From a bacterium (lineage in GTDB: Bacteria > Zhuqueibacterota > Zhuqueibacteria > Residuimicrobiales > Krinioviventaceae), in contig OY843751.1 in NCBI GenBank assembly GCA_963693055.1, positions 800,001-864,000 on the forward strand: a DNA stretch of 64,000 nt, given 5' to 3'. The notes under the pieces were generated by a model. That model saw nothing but the letters and a program-made list of their open reading frames with translations, had not been told where the DNA came from and did not search any database. The position numbers and the translations under genes were made by a program. Below are positions 33,491 to 64,000 of this stretch, piece after piece (position 1 is the first letter of the stretch; the number at the start of each line of letters is the position of its first letter).

Positions 33491-33506
33491 TGGCAAACTA
33501 TTTGCA
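33491..33506 (+). promoter_or_regulatory. Putative sigma54 (-24/-12) promoter
   Basis: TGGCAAACTATTTGCA with exact GG-N10-GC spacing, just upstream of SD GGAGGTG (33534) and ATG 33552. Confidence 0.72.
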
Positions 33507-33551
33507 CATGAACCATAGATGACTATGGAAAATGGAGGTGATTTACAGAAC

Positions 33552-41247: not shown

Positions 41248-41262
41248 TTTTAGCGGAGACAA

Positions 41263-42513: not shown

Positions 42514-42535
42514 TCTGATTATTTCAGGAGTATTT

Positions 42536-43288: not shown

Positions 43289-43300
43289 GAGAAGGAACTG

Positions 43301-46025: not shown

Positions 46026-46032
46026 GCAGTAT

Positions 46033-47463
46033 ATGGGTGAGAGAGACCGTATATTTAGAAATTTTATATTTCTGTTGATTGGCGGTATTATTGCCAGTCT
46101 GGTTGAATTTGCTATAGAAATTATGCTTGCACGGCGTCTATCTGACACCGGTTATGGGCACTGGTCATACGCCCAGTCCGTTTTTATTTATCTGATATTA
46201 ATTGTAGATATAGGGCTTGCAGTTTATGGCGCACGCGAGATAGCGCGTTGCAGGGAGCAAATCAATCGGTTTATAGCAAATATTGTTGTGGTGCGAACTT
46301 TGGTTGCTGTAATTTTATCTGCAGTGTTGTTTATTTATGTTTTAAGATTGGGGATTCCTGCACATTTAAAGACCCTTTATATGGGTGGCTTTTCCATACT
46401 TCTTGCACTGGCTTTTAACCCAGAATTTGTTTTCCAGGGGATTGAAAGAATGGTGGGGATTGCGCTGTGGCGCATTCTGAATTATGTATTCTTTTTTATT
46501 CTGGTACTATTGATTGTTCATAGGCCCGATGACCTGCAGAGGGTTTCATGGCTCCGTGGAATTTCATATATAGGTGCTGTGCTGATTTTGTGGTTGATCA
46601 TTGCAAAAATAACAGGTTTGCCGCGATTCGGTGATATTGCCGTGAATTCATGGCTCCCCATGTTAAAAGTATCTGTTTTTATTGCTGCGTCTACACTCAT
46701 TGTAAATGTTTATTTTACATTTGATACGTTGGTAATTGGCAAGTTTTTAGGTGCTCAGCAGGTTGGATGGTATTCAGCCGCATACAAGGTTGTTGGACAG
46801 TTTTTAGGTCTGGCCATTATGGTTCAGGTTGTTTTTGGCCCGGTTATTTCGCGCTGGCGTGATAATGCCTCAAAATTAGATTGGCTTACCTCTGCGCTAC
46901 AGGTAGTAATGCTTTACCTTGGTGGTTTGATTGCAGGGGGATTGTATTTTATCTCGGATGTTTTAATAATCCGGTTGTATGGACAAGAGTTTTTACAATC
47001 GGTTTTTATTTTCAAAGTGTTGTTGATTGTGATTTTTTTGTTCTTTTATCAGACAATTTATACTACTCTCTTGCTTTATAGCGGAAAAGAGAGATTGTAC
47101 CTGTGGAGCATGTCTGCCGGAGGTATGGTGAACCTGGTACTGAATCTGATAATTGTACCCATATGGGGTATGATTGGCGCATTGGCTGCTACACTTTTTA
47201 GCCATTTGGTAATTGCCGGGATCGCTTTTTTATTTTACCGATATCGGGTGCAAAAAGAGCTGCATCACATACATGTGTTAGGGATTTCGATGAAAATGAT
47301 TTTGTTTTTTGTGATGCTGGTAATAGTTTCTTTTATCAATAATGCTTATTTTGCTTGTATCCTGTTTTGTGCAGGTTTTACAATCTTGTATATATTAATG
47401 AATTTGAAAAAAATATCGACTGTTTTTAATGGACTGGTAACTAACGGAGAGCGCTTAATTTAA
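46033..47463 (+). CDS. Wzx-type flippase 1
   Basis: About 12-14 TM; LARRLS..GYG, DIGL, VGWYSAAY, GMIGA. Confidence 0.88.
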   Translation: MGERDRIFRNFIFLLIGGIIASLVEFAIEIMLARRLSDTGYGHWSYAQSVFIYLILIVDIGLAVYGAREIARCREQINRFIANIVVVRTLVAVILSAVLFIYVLRLGIPAHLKTLYMGGFSILLALAFNPEFVFQGIERMVGIALWRILNYVFFFILVLLIVHRPDDLQRVSWLRGISYIGAVLILWLIIAKITGLPRFGDIAVNSWLPMLKVSVFIAASTLIVNVYFTFDTLVIGKFLGAQQVGWYSAAYKVVGQFLGLAIMVQVVFGPVISRWRDNASKLDWLTSALQVVMLYLGGLIAGGLYFISDVLIIRLYGQEFLQSVFIFKVLLIVIFLFFYQTIYTTLLLYSGKERLYLWSMSAGGMVNLVLNLIIVPIWGMIGALAATLFSHLVIAGIAFLFYRYRVQKELHHIHVLGISMKMILFFVMLVIVSFINNAYFACILFCAGFTILYILMNLKKISTVFNGLVTNGERLI

Positions 47464-48968
47464 TGGCAAATTATGTAGGAAATAATAGTATGCTCAATCT
47501 TACCCGGGGTGGTTTGCTTGCTAAAAATACTATAATGAATATTGTTTTTCAGGGTGTGCCCCTATTGGTGGCATTGATTACTATCCCTGTTTTGATTAAG
47601 GGATTGGGTACCGATCGTTTTGGTGTGCTAAGTATTGCATGGATTGTAATGGGTTACTTCAGTCTGTTCGATTTTGGTATTGCCCGGGTATTGATCAAGA
47701 TGATTGGTGAAAAGCTTGCTGTAGAAAAGTATGATGAAATACCAGCCTTGTTTTGGACGGGATTTACGTTCTTGTCCATTTTGGGTATTGTTATGGCTGT
47801 GATTTTGATTTTTCTATCTCATGCACTGGTTTATCAGGTTTTTAAAATACCTCCTGATCTGTTGGGAGAATCGGTTATTGCGTTTTGGGCAATATCTGGC
47901 TGTATACCGGTTGTTATTACCACTGCCGCACTATGGGGAGTGATGGAGGCCAAGCAATCTTTTTTTAAAGTTAATATTGTACGTACACTAAATACATTGT
48001 TTACGCTATTATTGCCGGTTTTGGGATTACTATTTACAAACCATATTGGCTATATTATTATCATACTCACCATTGGCAGAATTGTTTTATGGTTTGTTTC
48101 TTTTTTTGTTGCATTGAATGTGTTGGATGTGTTAAAACGCGGATTTATCTTTTCCCGTGATCTTGTGAAACCCATTTTAAAATTGGGTGGCTGGATGTCT
48201 GTCAGCAATATTATCAGTCCATTAATGGTGTATTCAGACCGTTTTCTGATTGGAGCGTTGTTGTCTGTAACCGCAGTGACGTATTATGTTACGCCTTATG
48301 AAGTGGTTACAAAAATATTAATGGTAGCTATTGCTTTGAACCGGGTCTTGTTTCCCGCATTTTCCGCAAGTTATGATCTGGACAGAAACCGCGCGGCACG
48401 CATTTATGAATGGGGAAGAAAGTTGTTATGGGTTTTTATGTTCCCTATTATTTTGTTGATTGTTCTTTTTGCAAAAGAAGGATTGCAAATTTGGGTGGGG
48501 AACGACTTGGCCACTCAAAGTACATTGGTGATGCAATTATTGGCACTTGGTGTATTTCTGAATGCACCTGCACAGGTTTCGCTTAGCCTTATTCAGGCGG
48601 CAGGAAGGCCGGATATAACTGCCAAGCTTCATTTGATAGAAACCCCGTTATATTTCTTAATGTTTGTATTTATGGTAGACAAGATGGGTATTAATGGTGC
48701 GGCTTTGACGTGGTCTGCAAGGGTTTTGCTTGATTCTGTTTTAATGCATTATTTTGCCGGTAAATTGCTTGATATGAAACAAGTTAAATTTTTTATCGGT
48801 TTAGCCTTTGCTATGATTGTTTTTATAGCTGCTATGTTAATTCAATCTACATTGATGGTTAAATTGCTTTTTGTTGCTGTTATGGTTCCTGTTTTATTGC
48901 TATTTGTTTTTAAATGGTGGTTTGAAAAAGCTGAATTGAAACAGGTTTTGCAGTTCAGGAGAAATTGA
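47463..48968 (+). CDS. Wzx-type flippase 2
   Basis: LGTDRFG, FDFGI, DRFLIG, YYVTPY, MGINGAA. Confidence 0.9.
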   Translation: MANYVGNNSMLNLTRGGLLAKNTIMNIVFQGVPLLVALITIPVLIKGLGTDRFGVLSIAWIVMGYFSLFDFGIARVLIKMIGEKLAVEKYDEIPALFWTGFTFLSILGIVMAVILIFLSHALVYQVFKIPPDLLGESVIAFWAISGCIPVVITTAALWGVMEAKQSFFKVNIVRTLNTLFTLLLPVLGLLFTNHIGYIIIILTIGRIVLWFVSFFVALNVLDVLKRGFIFSRDLVKPILKLGGWMSVSNIISPLMVYSDRFLIGALLSVTAVTYYVTPYEVVTKILMVAIALNRVLFPAFSASYDLDRNRAARIYEWGRKLLWVFMFPIILLIVLFAKEGLQIWVGNDLATQSTLVMQLLALGVFLNAPAQVSLSLIQAAGRPDITAKLHLIETPLYFLMFVFMVDKMGINGAALTWSARVLLDSVLMHYFAGKLLDMKQVKFFIGLAFAMIVFIAAMLIQSTLMVKLLFVAVMVPVLLLFVFKWWFEKAELKQVLQFRRN

Positions 48969-48969
48969 G

Positions 48970-49686
48970 ATGCAAATTATTACAGTATATAATAATGAGT
49001 ATGTTTTGCATGGAGGATTAACGGCAAGTCATCCCAATATTCTGGAAAATGCAGCCATAACCCTGATCAATAACAGTCAGGGGAAATATTCTTCATTTAG
49101 TAAAGCTATTCAGGACAATTTGCATCTATTTTCGGATGAAATTTTGATCATTGCACATCAGGATGTGATTTTTTATAATGAAAAATGTTTTTTGAAAATT
49201 CCTGAATGGTGTCATTCAATTGATAACGACGGTTGTTTTTTTGCAGGCGTTGCCGGCAGGGTAGAAAGAGAAGGATATAAGGAAGGTGTGGGGATTGGAA
49301 ATATAATTTCAGGTGGTAGAGAAACCGGGTTTTTGACAATTAACACACCTCATAAGGTTAATACTTTTGATGAATGTGTCATGATTACGAATCTAAATAC
49401 CATCAAACGATTTGGATTATTTGAAAATCCTGTTATAAAGTGGCATTTATATGCTGTTGATGCTTGTACAATTTTGGCAAAGCATCATTTCTCTCCATAT
49501 GTATTCCCGGTTCAGGTAAATCATCTTTCTGCAGGTAACTGTGATTCGGATTATTTTCTCGCGGGACAATATTTATTAAAAAAACATCAGGTTAATGAAT
49601 TGTATACCACCAACGGCAAGCTTACTCGCACGTCTGTGGTAACACGTAATTTAAAATACAAAGCAAGAAAGATTTTGGGATTTTAA
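48970..49686 (+). CDS. GT2-like glycosyltransferase (Glyco_tranf_2_5-type)
   Basis: IAHQDV, AGVAG, TFDEC, WHLYAVD, HLSAG. Confidence 0.7.
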   Translation: MQIITVYNNEYVLHGGLTASHPNILENAAITLINNSQGKYSSFSKAIQDNLHLFSDEILIIAHQDVIFYNEKCFLKIPEWCHSIDNDGCFFAGVAGRVEREGYKEGVGIGNIISGGRETGFLTINTPHKVNTFDECVMITNLNTIKRFGLFENPVIKWHLYAVDACTILAKHHFSPYVFPVQVNHLSAGNCDSDYFLAGQYLLKKHQVNELYTTNGKLTRTSVVTRNLKYKARKILGF

Positions 49687-49692
49687 TAAAGA

Positions 49693-50976
49693 ATGAACAA
49701 GGTGAATGACTTACAATTTTCATTAAAAGGCTCTAGCTTTATTGTTCCAATGCTGGCATTGGCCTTGTTTGCGTTTATCCCGATTGATGTACAGATCTAT
49801 ATAATTCTGACGCTTTTTTTTTATATTATTTTATGGGGATTGTCTTTTGAACAGTCTGAGAAATTCAAATTGATTGTTTTTGCAGGTTTTACATTACGGA
49901 TTATTTTGATATTTGTGGATGAATATTTGGGGTCCGTGTTGCAGGAACAATCTGACCAGATTCTGTATAACATGGAAGCCAATATTATTCTGGATAACAT
50001 AAAAAACAATTCCCCCTTGTTTTATAACGTGTTTCCCGGTTTTGGAGTGAAAAGTTACAGCTTTATAATGAGTATGATTTATAAAGTGTTTGGTCCTGTT
50101 CCCATTTTGCCAAGGCTGCTGAATGTGTTTTTAAACGTATGGTCTGGAATTTTATTGTATAAAATTTCACGGGAATTATTTGAAAAATCAAAAATTGCAT
50201 TGCTGTCAATGACTCTCTTTATGTTCTGGCCTTCAAACTGGGCCTTTACATCTTATGCGTTACGTGACAGTATGATCATTTTTCTTTCATTTTTATTAAT
50301 TGTATCTTTTATTGATATTGTTAAAAATAAACCCAATTTTCACAATGTTTTGATGTTTGTTTTGATTTATACTGCAAGCACATTGCTCAGAAATCAAAAT
50401 TCCTATCTTTATATTGTCATGTTTTTATTCTATGGGATGTATTTGTTCTTTAAATCAAAAGTGGTAAAGTTTTACAAGCTATTGTTACTTTTGGGGATTT
50501 TGCTGCTATTACTGGTTGTATATCTGAAATTCAAATTGTATATTGACTTGGTTTTGGCGTATCCTTTTGTTGCGCAGCCATTGAGGGTTGAGGGTGGATC
50601 AGCCTATCTTGTTAATGTTGAAATGAACAATTACTGGGATGTATTCAAGTACTCTCCGATAAGATTTTTCTATTTCACTTTTGGTCCATTTTTGTGGAAT
50701 GTTCGTACTATTTTTCAATTGTTTTCAGCGCTTGAAAGTGTAGCGCTTTTTGTGGTATTTTTAGGTTTTATTCAATACTTTAGAAAATATAAAGTAGCCA
50801 AAAATGAAAATTTACAGATGTTTATTGTGATTTTTTGTCTGGTTGGATTAATGGCAAACGCAATTGTAGATTCAAATTTTGGTACAGCAATACGGCATCG
50901 TTTAAATTATACAAGTTTCTTTTTTGTCTTTTTTAGTGTGTATATACAAAATTTCAAAATTCGTTGGATATCTTGA
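49693..50976 (+). CDS. Multi-TM GT-C fold protein (candidate Wzy polymerase or ligase/transferase)
   Basis: About 10-11 TM; loop SDQILY, LRDS, C-terminal NFGTAIRHR; sits among glycosyltransferases. Confidence 0.65.
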   Translation: MNKVNDLQFSLKGSSFIVPMLALALFAFIPIDVQIYIILTLFFYIILWGLSFEQSEKFKLIVFAGFTLRIILIFVDEYLGSVLQEQSDQILYNMEANIILDNIKNNSPLFYNVFPGFGVKSYSFIMSMIYKVFGPVPILPRLLNVFLNVWSGILLYKISRELFEKSKIALLSMTLFMFWPSNWAFTSYALRDSMIIFLSFLLIVSFIDIVKNKPNFHNVLMFVLIYTASTLLRNQNSYLYIVMFLFYGMYLFFKSKVVKFYKLLLLLGILLLLLVVYLKFKLYIDLVLAYPFVAQPLRVEGGSAYLVNVEMNNYWDVFKYSPIRFFYFTFGPFLWNVRTIFQLFSALESVALFVVFLGFIQYFRKYKVAKNENLQMFIVIFCLVGLMANAIVDSNFGTAIRHRLNYTSFFFVFFSVYIQNFKIRWIS

Positions 50977-51902
50977 TGCTCACATCTTTTATTATTGTTA
51001 CATGGAATACACGTGATTTAACGTTATGTTGTATTCAGTCCATTTATGAACAGGAATCAAATGCATTTGAAATTCTGGTTGTGGATAATAATTCTCAGGA
51101 TGATACTTGTGAGCAGATAGAACAAAAATATCCTGATGTGCATTTGATCAGGAATGATGAAAACCAGGGTTATGCTAAAGCAAATAACCAGGGGGTTATT
51201 GCTGCCAAAGGTGATTTGATAATTTTGATGAACAGTGATACGGAATTGTTGACAAAAGATACAATTGGTAAAGTGATTTCATTTTTTGATATGAATATAA
51301 ATGCAGGCATAGCGGGTGCATGTCTTTTATATCCTGATGGGAAGGTGCAAGCTTGTGGCAGACGTTTTGTCACTGTCTTTACCTTGATCAAGGACCAGCT
51401 GCTGTTTCAGGATTCACCCTTGTTTAAAAAATCAAGCATGTCTGATACAATTCAATCTGTTGATTATGTGGATGGAGCTTTTCTCGCTATACGAAAAAAG
51501 GTCGTAGAGCGGATAGGATTATTGAATGAGAATTATTTCATGTACGCTGAAGATATGGAGTGGTGTGCAGCAGCTCACGATGCAGGATGGGGAGTATATG
51601 TTATTCCGGGAATTAAGGTATTGCATGTACATGCTGCAAGCTCTAAAAAATCGTTCAGGAAAATATTGATCCTGAATGCAATTAATCAATCCAGATTTTT
51701 GTACAAAAGATATAATATGTTTAATGCGATTTGTGGTTATATTGTATTAATCGTAGGTATGTTTCTGAGAATACCCGTTAATTTTGCAAGACGGAATGGT
51801 TTAACAACTGCTTATGCCCAAGCAGTTGTTAAATGTTTACAATTGATTCCTGTATTTACCAAACTTGTTACCGGAGAGCTGGATGAAACGCGTTGCATTT
51901 AA
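50976..51902 (+). CDS. GT2 family glycosyltransferase (WbbL-like)
   Basis: IIVTWN, VVDNNSQD, NQGYAKANNQG, MNSD, YFMYAEDMEWC; TGATG coupling at 50974-50978. Confidence 0.92.
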   Translation: MLTSFIIVTWNTRDLTLCCIQSIYEQESNAFEILVVDNNSQDDTCEQIEQKYPDVHLIRNDENQGYAKANNQGVIAAKGDLIILMNSDTELLTKDTIGKVISFFDMNINAGIAGACLLYPDGKVQACGRRFVTVFTLIKDQLLFQDSPLFKKSSMSDTIQSVDYVDGAFLAIRKKVVERIGLLNENYFMYAEDMEWCAAAHDAGWGVYVIPGIKVLHVHAASSKKSFRKILILNAINQSRFLYKRYNMFNAICGYIVLIVGMFLRIPVNFARRNGLTTAYAQAVVKCLQLIPVFTKLVTGELDETRCI

Positions 51903-53013
51903 TGCCCTGGTTATGGGACCCAATATAGGCGGCCTGGGAGTTTATATGCAGGAGATTATGAACTCGTTGTTACAGGAAAAGCACAACTTTGAGCCGGTAG
52001 TATATCTACCGGAAACCTGGTGTAAGAGTCATCCGGAATATTTAGAGCATCCTTTTGTGAAATGTATTTCAATTCGGGCGGATAATCCCATATTACGAAT
52101 TTTAATTGATCCATTTTTCTGGCCCAATCAGTTGAGAAAAGATTCTATTGATTTATTTTTTTCACCCATGTCTTATTTTCCGTTGGGTACCAATGTGCCC
52201 GGTATTGTTACCATTCATGATCTGCGCAGTTTTAATTGTCCCGAGTATTATCCATTTTTACGATATCACTATCTTCAATGGATCATTCGTCGGTCAGCTC
52301 GGAATGCTAAGCGTATAATTTCTGTTTCTCAATATACTCGTGATGATATTGTCAAATATTTAAAAGTAGATAGTTCGAATATAAATGTCATTCATGAGGG
52401 TATACATGCCGAACCCTGGCAAATAAAGAGTACAGATGACGAATATAATACTTATAAGAAAAAGTACGGCTTGGAAAAACCTTTTATTTTATCTTTAGGC
52501 CACCTGGAACCCAGAAAGAATTACATCCGTTTAATTGAAGCGTTTTCAATATTGAAAAAAGAGTTTTCAATTGAGCATGATTTGGTTATTGTGGGTCAGG
52601 AAAACTGGTTTTTTAAAGAAATTTATGCCAAAGTAGTTGAATTAAATTTGAATAATTCTGTACATTTTACTAACTTTGTTGCACAAAAAGATATCGCACC
52701 TTTGTATCAATTGGCGGATGTTTTTGTGACTGTTTCAACTTTTGAGGGATTTGGTTTTACGCCGCTGGAGAGTATGGCTGCGGGAACTCCTGTGGTTGTA
52801 TCAAATTGTTCCTCTTTGCCGGAAATCGTAGGGGATGCTGCAATATTATGCGATCCATATAATGTTAAGGATATTGCAAGTTCCATAAACAAATTGCTTT
52901 CAGATGAATCGCTTAAATCAAAATACATAGCAAAAGGTTTGGAACATATCAAGCAATATCCCTGGAATAAATGTGTCAATGAAACAATGAAAGTAATCGA
53001 GGAACATGTCTGA
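51883..53013 (+). CDS. GT4 family glycosyltransferase
   Basis: TIHDL, LEPRKN, EGFGFTPLESMAAG, SLPEIVG. Confidence 0.92.
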   Translation: MKRVAFNALVMGPNIGGLGVYMQEIMNSLLQEKHNFEPVVYLPETWCKSHPEYLEHPFVKCISIRADNPILRILIDPFFWPNQLRKDSIDLFFSPMSYFPLGTNVPGIVTIHDLRSFNCPEYYPFLRYHYLQWIIRRSARNAKRIISVSQYTRDDIVKYLKVDSSNINVIHEGIHAEPWQIKSTDDEYNTYKKKYGLEKPFILSLGHLEPRKNYIRLIEAFSILKKEFSIEHDLVIVGQENWFFKEIYAKVVELNLNNSVHFTNFVAQKDIAPLYQLADVFVTVSTFEGFGFTPLESMAAGTPVVVSNCSSLPEIVGDAAILCDPYNVKDIASSINKLLSDESLKSKYIAKGLEHIKQYPWNKCVNETMKVIEEHV

Positions 53014-54211
53014 ACAGAGTGGGAAAATTAAAGTCATTGTTGTATTGTCCCGTATAATTATTGGGGGGCCAGCGAATTTTGTTGAATTGTATGCAACACA
53101 TTTGCCCAAAGATACTTATAAAGTATTACTTGTTGGTGGGTGTGTTGAAGAAGGCGAACTGAATAAAGCGCAATTGTTGAAAGAAAAAGGTATTCAAGTT
53201 CACCTTATAGATATTATGAAAAGAGAGTTGTCCTTTTTTTATGATATTAAATCTGTCTATAAATTATATAAATTTATCAAAAAAGAAAAACCCCATATTG
53301 TATCAACACATACAGCAAAAGCCGGTGCCGTAGGCAGGATCGCTGCCAGATGTGCCAATGTACCGGTTGTTTTACATACTTTTCATGGTCATACATTTGA
53401 AAATTATTTTTCACCTGCCAAAACAGAGTTTTACAAAATTGTTGAACGTGTGTTGGGCTTTTTTTCAACAAAGATCATTTCTATCAGTCCGCTTCAACGT
53501 TATGATTTGGTCAAAAAATTTAAAATTGCGTCTATGGATAAAGTTGTTACTATTCCAATTGCAATTGATTCCAGCCGTTTTTTAAACCTTGAAAGAAATA
53601 ACGAGTTTAGGGACGAGTTGAAAATTCCCAAAGATGATTTTGTTATTGGAATGGTAGCCAGAATTGTACCCATAAAAAATCACAAATTGATTATTGATGT
53701 TTTAAAAGAACTGCACAACAGGGGAGTAAAAGCGCACCTACTTGTTGTTGGTGATGGTGAACAAGAATATAAAACCTTTATTGAACAATATGTTGATGAA
53801 AAGAATTTGAAACCATTTGTACATTTTACAGGGTGGGTGTTAAATGTAGAAAAAGTATACTCTGCCCTGGATGTGCTGGCATTGACTTCGTTAAATGAAG
53901 GAACACCTGTCAGCATTATTGAAGCAATGGCTGCATCCGTCCCCGTTGTTGCAACTGATGTAGGGGGTGTGAATGACTTGCTGCATGATAATAAAAATGG
54001 ATTACTCTGCAAAAGTAATGATCCTTTAGATATGGTTGAGAAAATGTTGCAAGTTAAAGAAGATATTGGATTTAGGAATGAAATTTGCAAAAATGGCAGG
54101 GAATTTGTTAAAGAACACTATAATCACATTACGGTTATCAAACGTGTGGACCAATTTCAACGTGAATTATTGCAAAAGTTTTATGAAAAGAATCCAAAAT
54201 TTAAATGTTAA
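53006..54211 (+). CDS. GT4 family glycosyltransferase
   Basis: IGGPA, HTAKAG, HTFHGH, SLNEGTPVSIIEAMA, TDVGG. Confidence 0.92.
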   Translation: MSEQSGKIKVIVVLSRIIIGGPANFVELYATHLPKDTYKVLLVGGCVEEGELNKAQLLKEKGIQVHLIDIMKRELSFFYDIKSVYKLYKFIKKEKPHIVSTHTAKAGAVGRIAARCANVPVVLHTFHGHTFENYFSPAKTEFYKIVERVLGFFSTKIISISPLQRYDLVKKFKIASMDKVVTIPIAIDSSRFLNLERNNEFRDELKIPKDDFVIGMVARIVPIKNHKLIIDVLKELHNRGVKAHLLVVGDGEQEYKTFIEQYVDEKNLKPFVHFTGWVLNVEKVYSALDVLALTSLNEGTPVSIIEAMAASVPVVATDVGGVNDLLHDNKNGLLCKSNDPLDMVEKMLQVKEDIGFRNEICKNGREFVKEHYNHITVIKRVDQFQRELLQKFYEKNPKFKC

Positions 54212-57200
54212 TTACAAGAAATATGAATTCAATTTATTTGTATTTTTATTTATTGTCGTTTTCTGGTATCCTGCCTCATTAGTGTTTGGAAACAGTATCG
54301 TTTCTGTACTTGAACAAACACCGCAATATACCATATTAGAGTGGACCGTTCCGCAAATTGAATTTAAGACGGTGCAAACGGAAAAGGGCGAGTTTGTTGT
54401 GCCGGCTTACGATGATCTGGCAGAATCCAGAGTACCCGGATTTCCCATTTTGCCTGTAAATAATCTCTTGTTGGAAAATTTGGATACTCAACGCATAACC
54501 GTTCTGGATACGGTCTATTCAGATAAATCTACCCATACCATTTGCCCTGCACCTTTATATCAGTATCCTGATTATGACTCTCAACCTTTTATTTCTTATA
54601 AAATGGGACCCGTTTATCAAAAAGCTGCTTTTTATCCCGCATCTTTTATATCGATTTCTCATGCCTGGCAGCGAGACAATTTATTGACCCGTTTTGCAAT
54701 AAATCCGGTTTTGTATAACCCTGTACAAAACCAGATACGTGTTTTGAGATATATCAAGATCAGGATTAATGCGGCTGTTGAATTAGATTTAAAAAATCAT
54801 ACAATCCGGTCTAAATCGGGTAATGCCAAACTTGCCAGATCTAATTCCGTGCAGGTGTCTGCTAATGATTCATGGTGGGAACCCTATAATAGTGATGAGT
54901 TGATAAAGATCGAAACGCCAACCGCTGGTATGTATAAAATTACGGGTCAGAATCTGCGTGACCAGGGTGTTCAGTTGTCAATGATCGATCCAAGCACTAT
55001 TAAGATGTTGAATAATGGAATTGAACAGCCTTGCCAGGTTTTAGATGGTGGAGACGGGGAATTTAATGAAAATGATTTGTTGGTTTTTTATGCGAACAGA
55101 TTGAGTGGAATTACCGATTTTTATCACTCCTGGGCTGTCAGCAATGTGTACTGGCTGGTTTGGGGTGGTAATGCCGGATTAAGATATTCAACACTGGCTA
55201 ATGATAATGATCCCGGTTTGTCAAATAATTATTTTTTATCTACTATTCATATTGAAAAAGACCTGGAATACTATCATGGCGATACCAATGAAGCCATACA
55301 GGAAACCAACATTACAGATGGTGAGGGCTGGGTTTGGACACGGGCATTATATCATAATTCCAGACAAACAATAGAGTTTGATTTACCGGGACTGTTCTCT
55401 GGTACCACCCTAAATGATTCTCTGAAAATTCGATTAAGGTTCAGAGGAATGACCATTGATTCGGCAGCAAACGATCATCATCTATTATTATCAGTCAACA
55501 ATAATAGTATGGGTGAGGGGTATTTTAATAACCGCCAGGAGTGGTTACCACAATTTTCAGTTCCTGTATCAAACCTGCTGGAATCTGGTAATCAATTATT
55601 AATAGAATCTGTTGCAACCAATGCCGAAATATCACAGGTATATTTTGACTGGCTTGAGGTTGATTATCCCCGTGCCTTGCAGGTTGAAAATGGTCAGATC
55701 TTGATCGATTCATTAGATACTGTTGAACATGCTCTGCAGATCAGTGGTTTACAGTCTGATTCTGTTTTTGTTTTTAATCTACAGGAACAAACAGAACTGG
55801 TGAATAAAAGTGTTCCAACGGGCAGGTTGTTAAATATTAAAGTACAGTCAGCCGCTATTGGTGATGGAAATTACAGCCGGTTCTTGATTGAAAATGAATT
55901 GATATATGAAGGTACTCGTGGAATTGGTATGGTGGTTATGAACCAGCATACCGGTAATGTAGAGTTGAAGCGGACTTTTGATACATGGGGCTCGTCAGCA
56001 GACGCAGACAGCCTGGTTGCAGTAGTAAGCAGAATTGCTGATGGCCGTATTGTATTATGCGCAATCAAAGATGAGGGCTCAAATCAACTTGGTGAAGAGC
56101 AGTATAATGCATTGGAAACACTTGGCAGCAATCAGATCCAAAATTTGGCCACAAGGGGTTCATGGGCTTTGATCGGCAGCAAGGGAGCGGAGTCGGGTAC
56201 TGCAATAGAAATTTTGACCGCTTCGGGAGAAGGCCCTGCACACATTGATGATTATATCAATTTTTCTCAAGGAGATGGATTTATTTGTCGTTTTGGAGTA
56301 CCCCAAAACCAAACAGGCCCTTTTGTTGTATTTGATATTATGGGATTAAAACAACCGCTATTACAGAAATTTCAGCTTGGCGAATTGTCTCTTGTACAGA
56401 ATGGTGCGGATTATATTATTGTCACCCATCCCGATTTTATGGAAACCGCCAATCAATTGGCAGCTCATCGGCAGACGCAAAATGGTTTCAGGACTTTTGT
56501 TGCCAATGTGAATGATATTTATAATGAATTTAATTATGGAATTAAAGATCCTGTTGCTGTTAAGCGGTTCCTGGAACTTGCATATAACAACTGGCAAAAG
56601 CCTGCACCCGAATATGTGGTAATGTTGGGTGATGCCAGCTGGGACCCGTTAAAGAATTCAGGCAATGATAGTAAAATCGATTTTGTGCCGGTTTACGGAA
56701 ATCCTGTCAGTGATGTTTGGTATGTTTGCATGGATGGCGAGGATGATATTGTTCCGGATATGCATATCGGTCGCATTCCTGTTGAAACAGAGTCACAGGC
56801 ACAAAACTATCTTGACAAGATGATGGAATACGAATCTACTCAGCCGGCATCCTGGAAAAAGAACTTTTTGTTTATCAGTGGCGGATTTGATCAGTATGAA
56901 CAATTGGTGTTTGGTCAGCAGTCTCAGACATTGATCGATGATTTTGTTACGGGTCCCCCGATAGGTGGCAATGCTATACATATCGGTAAAGAATCTACCG
57001 GGCTGGCAGAGGGAGAACATCGTGATGATCTGTTGAAGGCATTTGACGATGGCATTGTCTGGGCTAATTTTATTGGCCATGCCGGCAGCAGTACCTGGGA
57101 CCTTATGTTTCATAATCCTGATATTGATTTGCTGAATAATGGCCCCAAGTATCCTTTTATTACAAGTATGACTTGCCATACCGGGCGCTTTGCTGAACCG

Positions 57201-59945
57201 AATCAGGATAGCTTTGGTGAATATTTTTTGAGGGTTGTAGACAAGGGTGCCGTTGCATTCTGGGGTACCGCGGGTTGGGGATATACGTATGAAGACTATA
57301 TGTTTCTGCGTCAAATGTATCCCATTATGCTGCAGAATTCTGTTCAAGAAATTGGGAAAGGCTTGAGCCAGGCAAGGGCCGGTCTTTGGAGTACGCTGGG
57401 TGAAGGGTTGCATGTTAGGAATATAATTCTGCAATATGTTTTACTTGGAGATCCCGCGCTGGATCTTGCACTACCTGATAAACCCGATCTGGCAATTGAT
57501 GCTTCTGATGTTCGTGTTTATCCTGCTGTGCCCAGTGAGGCAGATTCGCTGGCAGAGATTCATGTGACTGTAAACAATTACGGACTTTTACCGCAAGACA
57601 GTGTAACTGTATTGGTTACAGCAGAACTACAAAACGGAAATAATCATAAAGTGGAATATACCAGGAGACTGGCTCCTGTTTACCTTTCTGATTCTGTGAG
57701 TGTAGATTGGAAATTAAAAAATATGACCGGATTGGTCAATGTTACAGCATCGGCTGATCCCTATGAAATGATTGATGAAGACGATGAAACAAACAATACA
57801 GCATCTCAACCGGTAACGGTTATTTCGAATGTAATACGCCTGTTATATCCACAAAATCAGACCGTATGTTCCGGTGATGATATGGTCCTCAGTATTCGAA
57901 ATCCCCAGGTTTCAAGCTTGGAGAATTATATGTTCGAATTTCAGCTGGATACATCAGGTACGTTCAATAGTGGATATCTAAAAACCTATACTGCATCTCC
58001 CGGTATTTTGGCAACTGAATGGGTGGTTGGCGATCTGCCTCCTGGAATTTATTTCTGGCGATGCCGAAATACCAATGAAACCGCGGGGCCGGTTTGGATT
58101 GAAGGCAGCTTTTTAGCAACGAATTCTAATAACTTTGGTTGGGGACAATCTCAAACCAAACAATTCTCTGTCAACAATCTGGATGATGCGCAAATTGTTG
58201 ACGACAGTATTGAACTGTATCGCGATGTGCTTACACTGAACGTTGAATCTGCAGGTATTGTGGATGGGAATTATGCCAGGTTGCTGGTGAATTCAAACTC
58301 GGTATTGGAAACGTCACGTGGAATCAATCTGGTCGCCCTGAGTCCTCAAGATGGCAGTGTATTGTTTCAAAAGTGCTTTGATACTTATGCAGATGGCAAT
58401 GCTCCTGATTCAATGGCATTGGTAATTAGCGAGTTCGCTGATAGTACCTGGGTATTGGCCGCTATCAAAGATGAAGGTAGCAACCAGTTGAATGAGACAG
58501 CATATACCGCCCTTGAATCCATTGGTAGTCAATATTGCAGGGATTTGCAATACAGAGATTCATGGGCCATTATTGGCAAAAAGGGAGCTCCTGTTGGTTC
58601 CGTTTCTGAAGAAATAAAAAAATCCGGTGAAGGATTTGTTTCATTGTTAGAGAATATTGGAATCTATAAAATGAATGGAACGGTGTCAACTCCACTTGTA
58701 GGCCCCAGTACAAATTGGCAAAAATGCAATGTAAAGACAAATCTGCCAGAGCAGACATCTATATTGTTTAATGTTCTTGGTATTCAGACTAATGGTGAGC
58801 AAGACACTTTGATCCGCCAAACCAACGCCAAAGAAATTGATCTGGCCGGTATCAATGGGGAGGTATATCCTTTTATAAAAATAGTGGGAACATTGAAAAC
58901 AAATGATTTTCATGTTACTCCGGCAATTCGTCAATGGATAATTAGTTTTGAACCTTCACCTGACCTTGCTGTGTCTCAGGAAACATTCCATGTAGATAAT
59001 GACACGATACTGATTGGAAGTAACGTTGAAATGCAGGCTCAAATTTATAATCTTGGCAAAGGCTCTATTATTGGTGATACTCTGAAACTTGCATTTTTTC
59101 ATATTGATACAGAGGGAAACGAGAATTTAATTACCCAAAAGAATTACGCTCAATCTATATTCGCCGATAGTATTATAACTGTTTCTCATGCCTGGAATTC
59201 TGAAGGCCACGCGGGAACACATAAACTCAAGTTGTACATAGATCCGGATAATCAATTTGTTGAATTGGATAAAGCCAATAATATTGTGACCACATCTGTT
59301 TATGTTCTGGCAGATACCATTAAACCAGAAATAGCAGTAACGATAGATGGTAGAGAGATCATGTATGGAGATTGGGTGGCATCGCAGCCGACCATAATGG
59401 TTGATGTTACAGATAACCGTCAGAATACATCTGGTATTGCTGATACAAGCAGAGTAACCGTTTTCCTCAATGATCAACGAGTCAGTTATGCCAGTGGTCA
59501 GCTGCAGATGTTAGAAACTGATGGAACCAATACAGCCATCAAACTTGAATATGAACCGGAACTGGAAGACGGTGAACATTATTTAACAGTAATGACTTCT
59601 GATCCCAGTAATAATTCAAGTATCTATCAAACCAGTTTTAATGTGGTTAAAGAACTGGCAATACGCAAAGCAGTCAACTATCCTAATCCCTTTGAGGCCG
59701 AGACTCATTTTACTTTTGAATTATCACAACCAGCCAATGTGCGAGTCAAGATCTATACGGTTGCTGGTAGATTGATAAACGATTTGGATTATGGCTGGCA
59801 GGGAGCGGGTTACAATATGCTTCCCTGGGATGGTACGGATGCTGATGGAGATGTACCTGCAAATGGTGTATATATTTACAAGATTGTTGCCTCAGAAGGT
59901 GACGAAAATGCAGAGGCAATCAGTAAATGTATACTCATGAAATGA
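54183..59945 (+). CDS. C25 family (gingipain/PorU-like) cysteine peptidase with two ILEI domains, CARDB-like domains and FlgD-Ig/T9SS CTD
   Basis: Propeptide-like N-terminus; ADYIIVT, LGDAS, HIGRIP; catalytic NFIGHAG and MTCHTG; LLGDP; two RG...FDT...AIKDEGS...R.SWA.IG.KG domains; D..NN; NYPNPF...WDG.D. ATG 54183 gives a signal peptide. Confidence 0.88.
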   Translation: MKRIQNLNVNYKKYEFNLFVFLFIVVFWYPASLVFGNSIVSVLEQTPQYTILEWTVPQIEFKTVQTEKGEFVVPAYDDLAESRVPGFPILPVNNLLLENLDTQRITVLDTVYSDKSTHTICPAPLYQYPDYDSQPFISYKMGPVYQKAAFYPASFISISHAWQRDNLLTRFAINPVLYNPVQNQIRVLRYIKIRINAAVELDLKNHTIRSKSGNAKLARSNSVQVSANDSWWEPYNSDELIKIETPTAGMYKITGQNLRDQGVQLSMIDPSTIKMLNNGIEQPCQVLDGGDGEFNENDLLVFYANRLSGITDFYHSWAVSNVYWLVWGGNAGLRYSTLANDNDPGLSNNYFLSTIHIEKDLEYYHGDTNEAIQETNITDGEGWVWTRALYHNSRQTIEFDLPGLFSGTTLNDSLKIRLRFRGMTIDSAANDHHLLLSVNNNSMGEGYFNNRQEWLPQFSVPVSNLLESGNQLLIESVATNAEISQVYFDWLEVDYPRALQVENGQILIDSLDTVEHALQISGLQSDSVFVFNLQEQTELVNKSVPTGRLLNIKVQSAAIGDGNYSRFLIENELIYEGTRGIGMVVMNQHTGNVELKRTFDTWGSSADADSLVAVVSRIADGRIVLCAIKDEGSNQLGEEQYNALETLGSNQIQNLATRGSWALIGSKGAESGTAIEILTASGEGPAHIDDYINFSQGDGFICRFGVPQNQTGPFVVFDIMGLKQPLLQKFQLGELSLVQNGADYIIVTHPDFMETANQLAAHRQTQNGFRTFVANVNDIYNEFNYGIKDPVAVKRFLELAYNNWQKPAPEYVVMLGDASWDPLKNSGNDSKIDFVPVYGNPVSDVWYVCMDGEDDIVPDMHIGRIPVETESQAQNYLDKMMEYESTQPASWKKNFLFISGGFDQYEQLVFGQQSQTLIDDFVTGPPIGGNAIHIGKESTGLAEGEHRDDLLKAFDDGIVWANFIGHAGSSTWDLMFHNPDIDLLNNGPKYPFITSMTCHTGRFAEPNQDSFGEYFLRVVDKGAVAFWGTAGWGYTYEDYMFLRQMYPIMLQNSVQEIGKGLSQARAGLWSTLGEGLHVRNIILQYVLLGDPALDLALPDKPDLAIDASDVRVYPAVPSEADSLAEIHVTVNNYGLLPQDSVTVLVTAELQNGNNHKVEYTRRLAPVYLSDSVSVDWKLKNMTGLVNVTASADPYEMIDEDDETNNTASQPVTVISNVIRLLYPQNQTVCSGDDMVLSIRNPQVSSLENYMFEFQLDTSGTFNSGYLKTYTASPGILATEWVVGDLPPGIYFWRCRNTNETAGPVWIEGSFLATNSNNFGWGQSQTKQFSVNNLDDAQIVDDSIELYRDVLTLNVESAGIVDGNYARLLVNSNSVLETSRGINLVALSPQDGSVLFQKCFDTYADGNAPDSMALVISEFADSTWVLAAIKDEGSNQLNETAYTALESIGSQYCRDLQYRDSWAIIGKKGAPVGSVSEEIKKSGEGFVSLLENIGIYKMNGTVSTPLVGPSTNWQKCNVKTNLPEQTSILFNVLGIQTNGEQDTLIRQTNAKEIDLAGINGEVYPFIKIVGTLKTNDFHVTPAIRQWIISFEPSPDLAVSQETFHVDNDTILIGSNVEMQAQIYNLGKGSIIGDTLKLAFFHIDTEGNENLITQKNYAQSIFADSIITVSHAWNSEGHAGTHKLKLYIDPDNQFVELDKANNIVTTSVYVLADTIKPEIAVTIDGREIMYGDWVASQPTIMVDVTDNRQNTSGIADTSRVTVFLNDQRVSYASGQLQMLETDGTNTAIKLEYEPELEDGEHYLTVMTSDPSNNSSIYQTSFNVVKELAIRKAVNYPNPFEAETHFTFELSQPANVRVKIYTVAGRLINDLDYGWQGAGYNMLPWDGTDADGDVPANGVYIYKIVASEGDENAEAISKCILMK

Positions 59946-60027: not shown

Positions 60028-61275
60028 ATGTGCAGAGATTATAATAATATGTCTTTAATTGGTGTTTTTTCAAAAAGTTTTATTGCCGAGGGTATAGTTG
60101 TTTTTGTTGGATTCATTAACAGTATAATTATTACTCGTGCACTGGGTGTAGAAGGTAGAGGCCAGTACTCTTTGGCAATGACAATCATTACTATTTCCGC
60201 CCTGGTATTGGGAGATGGTCTTTGCCGTAATAATACTTTTCTTACCAGCAAAGATAAAAAGCTGGTTTCTCCACTTTTTGGCAATTTATTATTATACTTT
60301 TTTTTTCTGGCTATATTAATGGCTGCAGCAGGTGTTTGGGGACTCCCGATTTTTCATATCGCTGTACCGGGTTTGTCAAACAAGCTGATTTGGTTGTCTG
60401 TTGCGGTTGTTCCGTTTTATATTACTATCCGCAGTATGAATTCAATATTTTTGGGTTTACAGGATTATAATCGTTATAATTTTTTTCTGGCATTGCCGTT
60501 TATATTCTATCTGCTGATAAATATCTGTATATATTTTTTTGCTACAGTAACACCTGAACTGGTTTTGACTGGTTATAATGCTTCCATGATATTGGTATTT
60601 GTTTTGATCCTTTATCTTTTTATTGCAAAATATAAAGCATCAAAACCAGATACCGCATTATTAAAAAAGAGTTTAAATTATTCAACCAAAGCGGCTGTTT
60701 CTCATATTTCTTTGTTTTTGTTATTCCGGGTTGATATTATTCTGATTAATTTATTGATAGGAGTAAAGGGCGCAGGATTGTACTCTATATCTGTCATGAT
60801 AGCTGAGTTGATGCAAAAACTTGCCAATACATCTGGAAATGTGATTTTTCCCAAGTTAACCGGTGAGAATACAAAGCAAAAACAGCAGTTAACAATGCGG
60901 GTATTTGCATTTGTTATGATTGTCAGTGTTGTTGTGGCTGTATTTATTTTGCTTTGGGGTAACGAATTTATTGTTTTGTTGTTTAAAAAAGATTTTTCAG
61001 ATTCCGCTTTGCCTTTGTACTGGCTTCTGCCAGGTGCAGTTATTATGACTGGTGCCAAAGTTATAAAATTCTCGTTATGGGCACAGGGATTCCCCTGGAT
61101 AACCATAACTGCTCCGGTTTCTGCTTTGATTTTAAACATTACATTGAATCTGATACTCATTCCCCGTTTGGGTATTGTTGGTGCTGCAATTGCAACCAGT
61201 TGTTCGTTTATTGTTTATAGTATTATGATTGTGGGTTATTATTTTACCCGATTTTACCGGAAAGCTCTAGTATGA
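60028..61275 (+). CDS. Wzx-type flippase 3
   Basis: TRALGVEGRGQY, RVDIIL, GLYS, LIPRLGIVGAAIAT. Confidence 0.88.
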   Translation: MCRDYNNMSLIGVFSKSFIAEGIVVFVGFINSIIITRALGVEGRGQYSLAMTIITISALVLGDGLCRNNTFLTSKDKKLVSPLFGNLLLYFFFLAILMAAAGVWGLPIFHIAVPGLSNKLIWLSVAVVPFYITIRSMNSIFLGLQDYNRYNFFLALPFIFYLLINICIYFFATVTPELVLTGYNASMILVFVLILYLFIAKYKASKPDTALLKKSLNYSTKAAVSHISLFLLFRVDIILINLLIGVKGAGLYSISVMIAELMQKLANTSGNVIFPKLTGENTKQKQQLTMRVFAFVMIVSVVVAVFILLWGNEFIVLLFKKDFSDSALPLYWLLPGAVIMTGAKVIKFSLWAQGFPWITITAPVSALILNITLNLILIPRLGIVGAAIATSCSFIVYSIMIVGYYFTRFYRKALV

Positions 61276-62492
61276 GAATTTTATATATTACACAATACTT
61301 TCCCCCAGAGGTAGGAGCTACTCAAACCCGTGCTTTGGAAATGACAACCAATCTGGTAAAACAGGGACACCAGGTAACGGTATTGACTGAATTCCCAAAT
61401 CATCCCGTTGGCATTATTCCACCGGAATATAAAGGTAAATGGGTAACTGTTGAAAAGTGGCGGGGTATGGATGTGATCCGTACCTGGGTTTATGCACGTC
61501 AGGAAAAGAACTTTAAAACCCGTATGGGATTTTATCTTAGTTTTATGGCAACATCTGCAATTGCGGGTTCATACATGTTGCCCGAGTATGATATTGTGTA
61601 TACAACCTCACCACCTTTTTTTGTAGGCTTGACTGGTTATTGGTTGAGTCGGTTAAAAAATGCAAAGTTTATTTTTGAAGTGCGTGATCTTTGGCCAGAT
61701 TCCGCGGTACAGTTGGGTGAATTGACCAATCGTACTTTAATACGTTGGGCTGAAAAGTTGGAGACTTTATATTATAATAAAGCAGAACGTATTATAACGG
61801 TTACACAGGGGATTAAGAACAGTCTGACTGAACGAGGTTATGGAGAAAAAACCGAGCTGGTACTTAATGGTACCAATACCGATCTTTTTAAAAATATGGG
61901 ACCCGGAATGAAAAATAAACTGGGCCTTGAGAATAAATTTATTGTGTTATATGCGGGAATTATTGGTATAGCTCAGGGACTGGAACAAATTTGCGATGTT
62001 GCTGAACAATTGCAAGATCAACCGGATATTGCATTTGTTTTGATTGGTGAGGGACCTGTTAAGCATAAAATTGAAAAAATAAAACAGGAAAAATATCTAA
62101 AAAATCTTATATTAATGGATCAGGTCCCCAGAGACGATATACCGCTATATATTTCAATGGCAGATTGCTGCCTGGTTCCCCTGAAAAAGAATGATTTGTT
62201 TAAAGGCGCTTTGCCATCCAAGATGTTTGATTATATGGCATGTGAAAAACCGGTTATACTCAGTGTGGATGGTGAAGCACGGACAGTACTTGAACGCTCA
62301 GGAGCTGGTATATTTGTAGAGCCTGAGAATCGAAAGGATATGATCTCTGCCATCCTTTCTCTGAAATCCGGTTCTGTTGATGGAAAGTCAATGGGACTAT
62401 TGGGAAGAGTGTTTGTTGAAAAAGGGTATTCAAGAAAACAGCAGGCACTCGAGTTGTTGAGTATCCTTGAGAAAATCGTCCGAAATCAATAG
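61272..62492 (+). CDS. GT4 glycosyltransferase (WbuB-like)
   Basis: TQYFPPEVGA, FPNHP, TTSPP, EVRDLWP, YAGIIGIAQG, PSKMFDYMA. Confidence 0.92.
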   Translation: MRILYITQYFPPEVGATQTRALEMTTNLVKQGHQVTVLTEFPNHPVGIIPPEYKGKWVTVEKWRGMDVIRTWVYARQEKNFKTRMGFYLSFMATSAIAGSYMLPEYDIVYTTSPPFFVGLTGYWLSRLKNAKFIFEVRDLWPDSAVQLGELTNRTLIRWAEKLETLYYNKAERIITVTQGIKNSLTERGYGEKTELVLNGTNTDLFKNMGPGMKNKLGLENKFIVLYAGIIGIAQGLEQICDVAEQLQDQPDIAFVLIGEGPVKHKIEKIKQEKYLKNLILMDQVPRDDIPLYISMADCCLVPLKKNDLFKGALPSKMFDYMACEKPVILSVDGEARTVLERSGAGIFVEPENRKDMISAILSLKSGSVDGKSMGLLGRVFVEKGYSRKQQALELLSILEKIVRNQ

Positions 62493-62508
62493 GATCAGGA
62501 GATTTCAA

Positions 62509-63606
62509 ATGCGTTATTTTTTGTATGGTACAGTTGCTTTAGAAGCGTTTTTAATCGCACTTTTCATTGTGCCTATTATACGTAAATTGGCCATTTCATG
62601 GAATGTAGTAGATAAACCGGGTGAACGTAAAATTCATTATACCCCCAAAGCATTGATGGGTGGTGTTGGTATTTTTACCGCGTTTTATGTTACGGTTTTG
62701 GTAAATGTAATTGGTTTTTATCTTTTGTATCATACATCATTTGTTCAGTCACACTTGCAAACCATTGTGAGAGTTGCCCCTATGCTGGACCAGGTTGTAC
62801 CCAAACTTGTTGTAATACTGGGTGGCGGGGCTGTTATTCACATGTTGGGTATTTTGGATGATATCCTCAAAGAGAAATTGACCTATAAACCCAAATTTAT
62901 TGTACAGATTGTTGTAGCGCTTGTTGTTTCTCTGATGGGAGTGCGAACTCACTTTATGCCTGGTACTGCTTTGGATGTCTTTGTTACAACTATATGGATT
63001 GTGGGTGTTACAAACAGCTTTAATCTGCTGGATAATATGGATGGTTTGACAGCCGGAGTTTCGGTTATTGCGGCCTTGTTTTTATTTGTTATTGCTGTTT
63101 TGCAGGGACAGATATTTTTTGCCTTTATGCTTGCAGCGTTAATAGGTGCCTGTTTGGGATTTTTACCCTATAATTTTAATCCCGCAAAATTATTTATGGG
63201 TGACAGTGGAAGCCTGTTTTTAGGGTATATTTTTGCAACCTTGACGGTAACAGGCTCATATGTTGTACCTACAAGCCAGACCCATATACCTATCATGATC
63301 CCGATTCTGATACTTTCTATTCCGCTATATGATACTTTTTCGGTAATGTTTATAAGGTGGCGCGAAAAACGGCCGCTATTTCTGGGAGACAAGCGCCATT
63401 TCTCCCACCGATTGCATGCACTTGGCATGAGCCAACGTCAAGCGGTAACCTTTATTTATCTTGTTGGTTTATGTGTAGGTGGTGTTGCTACACTTTTACC
63501 GTATATCTCTTTAATCGGAAATGTTGTTGTTCTGGTTCAGATAATTATTATATATATAATAATAACCTTTTTAATAGTTATAGGAAAACAAAATCAAAAT
63601 TCTTGA
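62509..63606 (+). CDS. wecA: MraY/WecA family undecaprenyl-phosphate GlcNAc-1-P transferase
   Basis: RKIH, MGG, GILDD, NSFNLLDNMDGL, FMGDSGS, HFSHRL. ATG 62509 has SD AGGAG. Confidence 0.88.
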   Translation: MRYFLYGTVALEAFLIALFIVPIIRKLAISWNVVDKPGERKIHYTPKALMGGVGIFTAFYVTVLVNVIGFYLLYHTSFVQSHLQTIVRVAPMLDQVVPKLVVILGGGAVIHMLGILDDILKEKLTYKPKFIVQIVVALVVSLMGVRTHFMPGTALDVFVTTIWIVGVTNSFNLLDNMDGLTAGVSVIAALFLFVIAVLQGQIFFAFMLAALIGACLGFLPYNFNPAKLFMGDSGSLFLGYIFATLTVTGSYVVPTSQTHIPIMIPILILSIPLYDTFSVMFIRWREKRPLFLGDKRHFSHRLHALGMSQRQAVTFIYLVGLCVGGVATLLPYISLIGNVVVLVQIIIIYIIITFLIVIGKQNQNS

Positions 63607-63630
63607 TGTAATATTTCTCAGGAGGAAAAT

Positions 63631-64000
63631 TTGAGAGCGTTAATAACTGGCGGTGCAGGCTTTATTGGTTCGCACCTTGCAGAAAAATTGTTGGAGAGAG
63701 GGGACAGTGTTTGTGTTATAGATGATCTGTCTACAGGTCGATTGGAAAATGTTAACCATTTACGAGACAATCCGAATTTTAGCCTGGTAATAGAGACGAT
63801 TCTAAACGAAACGGTAATGGACCGCCTGGTAAGTGAATGCGATGTAATCTATCATTTGGCGGCAGCTGTGGGTGTAGAGCTGATTGTTAAAAGCCCGGTA
63901 GAAACAATCGAAAGAAATATTCTGGGTACAGATGTTGTACTCCGGTTATCAAATCGATATTTACGTAAAGTATTGATCACTTCTACTTCAGAGATATATG
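63631..64000 (+). CDS. NAD-dependent sugar-nucleotide epimerase/dehydratase (partial; not in ORF track)
   Basis: TTG start after SD GGAGG: MRALITGGAGFIGSHL...DDLSTG...YHLAAAVGV...TSTSEIY. Confidence 0.9.
   Translation, partial: MRALITGGAGFIGSHLAEKLLERGDSVCVIDDLSTGRLENVNHLRDNPNFSLVIETILNETVMDRLVSECDVIYHLAAAVGVELIVKSPVETIERNILGTDVVLRLSNRYLRKVLITSTSEIY

Follow-up and report, generated by a model that had tools for sequence, protein, structure and literature searches.

The window analyzed here, i.e., the whole stretch of 64,000 nucleotides, carries a gene encoding a cysteine peptidase of family C25 in which two ILEI domains are inserted, and this gene lies inside a run of polysaccharide genes. 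The parts are known singly, and what appears to be new is their combination in a polysaccharide cluster. We give roughly even chances to the reading in which the protein is a second T9SS sortase, dedicated to the cluster, the ILEI domains being predicted to bind the cluster polysaccharide and the cargo to be cut at its CTD and joined to this polymer.

The peptidase gene consists of a single unbroken ORF (54183–59945, + strand) encoding 1920 aa, to which the database entry adds 7 codons at the 5′ end (1927 aa). Positions 54183–54211 overlap the upstream GT4 gene by 29 nt, at a place usually taken by a WecA-like gene in the relatives. The profile search of the ORF gave the Pfam layout Propeptide_C25, Peptidase_C25, two ILEI, two CARDB, and a FlgD_ig/CTD end, four of these families (Peptidase_C25, ILEI, CARDB, and FlgD_ig) having been named for such a search in an earlier note made from the sequence. 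A probable Sec signal peptide (54183–54290), read by eye from a basic start and a hydrophobic stretch, precedes the Propeptide_C25 domain (54294–54770, aa 38–196; 48 bits), which has the gingipain prodomain fold (5mun, Z 15.2). These are followed on the same strand by ILEI domain 1 (55830–56252, aa 550–690), the catalytic domain (56412–57467, aa 744–1095), a first CARDB/Ig domain (57483–57830, about aa 1101–1216; Pfam and 3idu, Z 13.8), ILEI domain 2 (58230–58652, aa 1350–1490), a second CARDB domain identified by Pfam (58956–59291, aa 1592–1703), and an Ig domain with a T9SS type A CTD (59307–59942), which has its YPNPF motif at nt 59679 and is PorU-like in having no linker of the cargo type. 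The AlphaFold models gave pLDDT values of 90 and 88 and pTM values of 0.66 and 0.83; since the model including both ILEI domains is the one with a pTM of 0.66, the domain arrangement is uncertain.

The two repeats of about 90 aa on either side of the C25 core described in the earlier note were found to be correctly placed as regards their cores (Pfam ILEI cores at 55917–56189 and 58317–58589), but the full domains measure about 140 aa each, and they are cassettes inserted in beta-domain slots rather than simple flanks. The motifs AIKDEGSNQL (aa 627 and 1427) and SWA.IG.KG (aa 660 and 1460), previously reported to be shared, are indeed present in both repeats of the ORF translation, and the repeats show 46% identity over 133 aa (E 7e-41). 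Their proposed identity as ILEI domains was confirmed by the PF15711 scores, which amounted to 89.2 and 89.5 bits vs. a cut-off of 27, and no other PF15711 matches were detected in the 6.5 Mb genome. The possibility that the repeats might be due to chance or might have decayed was ruled out by this identity, these scores, and the conservation of the sugar triad.

Among the solved structures, the POMGnT1 stem was the best non-peptidase match of the ILEI domain (E 7e-16, about 30% identity), and the AlphaFold model of ILEI1 fits this stem with a Z of 22.2 and an rmsd of 1.7 over 142 residues; these figures belong to copy 1, whose predicted secondary structure recurs in copy 2. The sugar contacts of POMGnT1 are described as Arg129, Asp179, and Arg207, and a worm domain having this triad is reported to bind GlcNAc and mannose, while no binding is reported in the case of a worm domain without two of the triad residues (PMC9802357). 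A phage domain keeps Arg129 and Asp179, both of which are named in PMC9437275. The three residues correspond to R579/D630/R658 (nt 55917, 56070, and 56154) and R1379/D1430/R1458 (nt 58317, 58470, and 58554), and the triad is complete in both copies, as mapped by hand on the alignment to POMGnT1 (spacing 50/28 in POMGnT1, 51/28 here). In the close homologues, five of the six positions are conserved in 58/58 sequences and R658 in 55/58, vs. a mean column conservation of 0.58–0.59 within the ILEI domains. In full-length distant relatives, where the first Arg is poorly aligned, the triad was complete in 10/17 proteins per slot in the two-ILEI forms and in 28/77 single-ILEI forms. All seven of the weak PorU2-type ILEI domains aligned are without the triad. 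The ILEI identity of both copies and their putative lectin activity are supported by the sequence, the triad, and the predicted fold.

The ILEI-C25-ILEI layout was present in 83 of the 105 proteins examined (two of the 83 being the window's own entries), and the sources, where a taxon was given, were mostly members of the candidate division KSB1. The existence of these homologues and of PF15711 across the phylum led us to reject the idea that the architecture is confined to one genome. PF15711 is present in 95 of the 145 phylum genomes, mostly in two copies per genome in families f1–f12 and one in f13–f17, and is absent from the 28 genomes of f18–f24; the ILEI-peptidase gene occurs as a rule in one copy across most of the class. 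In the set of more distant relatives (143 examined, 105 of them full-length), 77 of the full-length proteins carry one C-terminal ILEI copy, and two of ten single-ILEI clusters looked up bear a Bacteroidota label. The claim that canonical PorU lacks ILEI holds true of the two PorU proteins of this genome, but ILEI on C25 peptidases is a family trait.

In the family profile, the slot edges are joined directly in the relatives having no ILEI, which shows both ILEI domains to be cassette inserts in beta-domains. Slot 2 of one homologue (P0194, aa 1172–1291) is occupied by an F5/8 type C carbohydrate-binding domain where ILEI2 sits here, and three other loci have a slot-2 insert of ~280 aa. An insert of this kind, for which only a marginal beta-propeller-like match was obtained (best E 0.036), is a feature of an ILEI-less C25 subfamily (L183, L186, L188, and L208; ~1920 aa) encoded beside Bac_transf genes in polysaccharide clusters. 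In a first quick tree, the one- and zero-ILEI forms were nested inside the two-ILEI group, and in a second one, the two-ILEI group formed one side with a support of 67; the sole grouping starred in both trees is that of the zero-ILEI forms nested among the one-ILEI forms. The tree of ILEI domains did not split the N from the C copies cleanly. Two other proteins carry larger numbers of these domains: six in P0210, and five in P0234 along with a weak PI-PLC-X match.

The catalytic domain was assigned to family C25 by PF01364 (286 bits vs. a cut-off of 23). GH966 and C998 align with the gingipain/PorU dyad, which is invariant in 58/58 aligned homologues, and both codons (His at nt 57078, Cys at nt 57174) are as given in the earlier note, where the dyad was said to be intact. 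The model of this domain best matches the gingipains in its fold (RgpB, Z 41), and 679 model residues superpose on PorU at an rmsd of 8.4. The protein scored 374.9 bits on the PorU profile NF033707, which is below the cut-off of 420; the genome's own PorU genes scored 875 and 881 bits, and two of the homologues scanned narrowly exceeded the cut-off (428 and 433). Its best NCBIfam match is the PorU2 profile NF052324, with a score (401 bits) again below the cut-off of 450, which may be depressed by the insert within the modelled region. No PorV-family match adjoins the peptidase gene, the neighbors of which are GT4 and Wzx genes. That it might be the organism's PorU was rejected in view of the score below the cut-off, the two true PorU genes in the genome, and the class-wide occurrence of PorU. 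As it falls below the cut-offs of both PorU and PorU2, the peptidase was filed as a PorU2-like paralogue.

The CTD was recognized by the type A profile TIGR04183 (32.6 vs. 23 bits). The region consisting of the Ig domain and the linker-less CTD resembles that of PorU (E 1e-8), and among the approximately 229 CTD proteins of the genome, the top matches of this CTD are the two PorU. According to a crude pattern, the linker-less class comprises only four proteins of the genome, all of which are C25 peptidases. Since PorU and PorZ are described as retaining their CTDs (PMC10202324, PMC11285876), the linker-less CTD suggests that the peptidase is part of the machine rather than a cargo. Judging from its sequence, the protein is a KSB1-wide PorU2-like paralogue which coexists with PorU: the gingipain/PorU-like label given in the earlier note is right as to the C25 fold and the PorU-type ends, but not if taken to mean PorU itself.

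Six full C25 genes were identified in the genome, namely two true PorU genes in tandem, two located by PorV-like genes, a gingipain-like one, and that of the present peptidase. The canonical PorU pair (L003; G000:C1:6251525-6259890) is nearly identical, and adjacent PorU pairs also occur in several other KSB1 genomes. Of the 87 class genomes, 83 have at least one canonical PorU gene. The genome also harbors a PorZ gene, an SprA match (662 bits), and 22 PorV-family matches above the cut-off. Canonical PorU acts in a complex with PorV, PorQ, and PorZ, and partner genes of the PorZ and PorV-family type are thus located away from the present peptidase gene. The GldM profile gave no match in the genome, though no control responded to it either, and GldK gave only partial hits below the cut-off; the T9SS motor may therefore be divergent or replaced. 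One of the C25 paralogues (L002; G000:C1:4295964-4307401) adjoins a PorV-family gene, and upstream of it are a GT4 gene, a PMT_2 protein gene, and what looks by eye like a nucleotide-sugar dehydrogenase gene.

The earlier note was silent on the setting of the peptidase gene, which lies inside a same-strand run of polysaccharide genes extending from 39322 to beyond 64000. The upstream genes (39322–54211, + strand) encode a Wza-like export protein, Wzz, a hexapeptide acetyltransferase, a UDP-GlcNAc 2-epimerase, Wzi, two Wzx flippases, a 238-aa protein, a GT2 and two GT4 proteins, and a 427-aa membrane protein with no Pfam match, which is probably polymerase-like. Downstream (60028–64000, + strand) are the genes for Wzx, GT4, a WecA-like protein (PF00953), and an NAD-dependent epimerase running past the end of the window. 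In the relatives, the upstream WecA forms a group of its own, separate from the downstream WecA-like gene; in this genus, only the downstream one is present and the usual upstream WecA-like gene seems to have been lost. No plasmid match was found for the locus.

The neighbors of the peptidase gene were counted in the best 80 of 142 related genome loci, the count being confined to the 57 with 1.5 kb or more of upstream sequence; it is based on a six-frame reading within a radius of 8 kb, the profiles used to recognize the neighbors derive from the tested loci themselves, and the genomes, being kin, are not independent samples. Of the 43 two-ILEI loci, 42 have one or more polysaccharide genes within 8 kb and 41 have two or more, and a WecA-like gene was located directly upstream in 37. 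Such genes were also found near 6/7 one-ILEI loci and 4/4 truncated loci; in the zero-ILEI KSB1 loci, 1/3 had such a gene and none had two. The base rate in the genome was 16% of 1303 windows of 22 kb with at least one polysaccharide gene and 6.8% with at least two, and none of 20 canonical PorU loci (picked on long contigs from 83 genomes) had any. The alignment of the single-ILEI relatives led to 71 metagenome loci, 32 of which were countable: polysaccharide clusters surround 18 of the 20 strong-ILEI loci, with a WecG/TagA gene in 14 (two of the 20, L203 and L206, look KSB1-type), vs. none of the eight PorV2-adjacent or weak-ILEI loci. The ILEI-less C25 subfamily is also found in such clusters, beside a Bac_transf gene (4/4 loci), which means that this context does not need ILEI. 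In two loci where the triad has decayed (L061 and L063), the upstream genes are limited to two, one of them a DegT gene.

The polysaccharide genes belong to a wider module headed by a sigma-54 activator gene (33519–34640, + strand), followed by genes for a small fn3 + CTD protein (34674–35288, +) and a 1242-aa fn3/Big_5 surface protein ending in a CTD (35437–39165, +), which are a candidate cargo and the main candidate cargo, respectively. The best Big_5-CTD match listed and the ILEI match fall on one contig in 17 of 63 genomes, and in every one of these the Big_5/fn3 CTD gene lies 12.7–39.9 kb upstream of the peptidase gene, both being on the same strand; the remaining 46 genomes have the two matches on different contigs and are therefore uninformative on linkage. 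In four of the five ILEI modules read, the order is ABC ATPase, sigma-54 activator, optional fn3-CTD, Big_5-CTD, Wza, Wzz, Wzi, Wzx/GTs, and peptidase, with WecA immediately 5′ of the peptidase in three of these four; the gene order of the fifth, which is GC-rich, is obscured by shadow frames. At one locus devoid of polysaccharide genes (L073), an ILEI-less peptidase is encoded directly 3′ of CTD genes. In ILEI-lacking KSB1 families (L146, L148, L152, and L153), a Big_5-CTD homologue of ~1780 aa is located directly 5′ of what look by eye like type IV pilus genes, which take the place of the polysaccharide genes.

A sigma-54-like site with 9/10 consensus bases (33491–33505) was observed just 5′ of the activator gene, the product of which has only ~50 aa ahead of its AAA domain. 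Similar sites precede 4/6 of the activator genes and 4/12 of the Big_5-CTD genes checked; none was found upstream of the peptidase gene, and only 1/58 homologues has one. A sigma-54 activator is also found in PEP-CTERM/exosortase systems. Elsewhere in the window, positions 14390–16549 encode a 719-aa protein which by eye combines an Fe-S/[FeFe]-hydrogenase-like domain with a methyl-accepting chemotaxis domain.

In Porphyromonas gingivalis, PorU is described as cleaving the CTD, forming a thioester, and passing the cargo on to a linking sugar, which is provided by PorZ and accepts the cargo through its amine (PMC10202324, PMC8545088, PMC7468200, PMC13086638); the part of A-LPS bound by PorZ is the polysaccharide (PMC8545088), and the linking sugars are reported to vary among species (PMC11969387). 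The fact that the present protein combines a PorU-like body with intact lectin inserts, a polysaccharide cluster, and a co-encoded CTD protein makes a dedicated sortase holding its own acceptor the simplest reading. The peptidase would be exported through Sec and T9SS and would retain its CTD. Both ILEI domains would bind sugars of the GlcNAc/Man type, and would thus play in cis the role played in trans by PorZ for PorU. The enzyme would then cleave secreted cargo, mainly the co-encoded fn3/Big_5-CTD protein, at its C-terminal signal, forming a thioester that would be resolved by an amine borne by the polysaccharide or by its linker. The earlier note had suggested that the two domains could select either the glycan acceptor or a glycosylated substrate; the context, with a Wzy-type cluster in 42/43 loci, favors the former. 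The acceptor amine is the weak link in the sortase reading: no DegT aminotransferase gene is present in this cluster, although several relatives' clusters have one, and the only matches to the VimA-like TIGR03019 in the genome are two weak ones outside the cluster. In addition, the genome's PorZ and two PorU proteins could handle all the sorting.

The same context and triad data also fit with a maturation protease tethered to the glycan, in which the ILEI domains would serve only to anchor the enzyme in the polysaccharide layer by non-covalent contacts, and, for example, CTD removal or trimming of the co-encoded surface protein would proceed by hydrolysis without any ligation to the glycan; we take this to be the leading alternative, though a rather unlikely one. 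It can do without an amine acceptor, and the search for one came up empty; PorU and PorZ are available for covalent anchoring, two lectin domains would suit avid retention at the surface, and the best catalytic fold match is a gingipain. Cwp84 of Clostridioides difficile provides an analogue. Against a tethered protease stands the resemblance of three of its parts (N-terminal region, last Ig domain, and linker-less CTD) to PorU rather than to cargo, as does the description of both PorU and the gingipains as transpeptidases (PMC7468200).

If the cluster glycan were placed on proteins, the ILEI domains might instead choose glycosylated T9SS cargo for cleavage or sorting. The POMGnT1 stem is described as binding glycans borne by its protein substrate (PMC9802357), and the Wzy_C (O-antigen-ligase-like) proteins encoded at 13 loci and the PMT_2-like membrane proteins encoded at 11 could be oligosaccharyltransferases; the Wza, Wzz, and Wzi genes in the module nevertheless point to an exported capsule-type polymer, which makes the selection of glycosylated cargo improbable. 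The C25 gingipains are general proteases, and synteny can outlast function among kin, so that the enzyme might also be a nutritional surface protease binding outside glycoproteins and occupying its place in the operon by historical accident. This we regard as very unlikely, since the cluster association recurs in a separate lineage with another neighbor (WecG, 14/20 loci) and is gone where the triad is lost, and the gene is mostly single-copy through most of the class.

Compared with the PorU of P. gingivalis (PDB 6za2), the peptidase shares the His-Cys dyad, the N-terminal domains, and the last Ig domain with its linker-less CTD, and SprA, PorZ, and PorV-family genes are present in the organism; unlike PorU, it is ~760 aa longer, with a propeptide and two copies each of the ILEI insert and the CARDB domain, scores below the cut-off, coexists with true PorU, and is encoded in a polysaccharide cluster, where none of the 20 KSB1 PorU genes were found. 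PorU2 (NF052324), the name of which as a putative sortase is that of the database only, has the same overall layout and an ILEI-like domain in slot 2, whereas in the PorU2-type loci, the ILEI match is weak and the triad missing, there is no N-terminal ILEI, and the neighbor is mostly PorV2 (NF052325). The catalytic fold (Z 38–41, rmsd 2.1–2.5) and the prodomain (Z 15) are those of the gingipains RgpB and Kgp, from which the protein differs in its PorU-type N-terminal domains and CTD junction, the identity being 20–22% and the alignment poor at the specificity pocket. The ILEI domains resemble the POMGnT1 stem and the FAM3 proteins (ILEI, PANDER; PDB 5ggj, 5lc2) in their Pfam match, predicted fold, and R/D/R triad; POMGnT1 has one copy fused to a glycosyltransferase, in contrast to the two copies inserted here in a bacterial cysteine peptidase. 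As described for PEP-CTERM/exosortase systems (PMC7468200), a sorting peptidase, sorted proteins, and exopolysaccharide genes are grouped together; unlike those systems, with their inner-membrane exosortase, the present one has a secreted C25 enzyme, and the co-encoded proteins end in T9SS CTDs, with no PEP-transmembrane tail.

In the databases, these proteins are named "C25 family cysteine peptidase". A search covering titles, abstract openings, and term counts returned no literature on ILEI-bearing C25 proteins or their polysaccharide-cluster setting. The main text of the KSB1 genome paper (PMC9012183) contains neither T9SS nor C25, and a bioRxiv preprint names ILEI once, in giant bacterial proteins. 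In the passages of PMC7468200 bearing on sortases beside exopolysaccharide genes, these are discussed for PEP-CTERM systems only. How the T9SS sortase chooses its glycan acceptor and which cargo is anchored or released are described as unresolved in PMC10202324.

The fact that the enzyme, the lectin, the glycan pathway, and the candidate cargo occur in one conserved module means that the acceptor question can be tested with small soluble domains, and the cultured single-ILEI relatives could probably also be used for this purpose. More broadly, and with distinctly less confidence than we place in the sortase reading itself, we suggest that KSB1 and related FCB bacteria may possess a second, self-contained T9SS anchoring pathway, in which a lectin sortase with swappable slots would tie a dedicated surface protein covalently, and without PorZ, to a capsule or exopolysaccharide of the Wzy type rather than to LPS; such a design would be convergent with that of the PEP-CTERM/exosortase systems. 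Glycoconjugate production could also benefit from a protein-to-polysaccharide ligase guided by a lectin. If this picture is true, T9SS anchoring would extend beyond LPS and beyond the Bacteroidota, and a role in bacteria would be found for a lectin fold that is chiefly associated with human POMGnT1 and FAM3.
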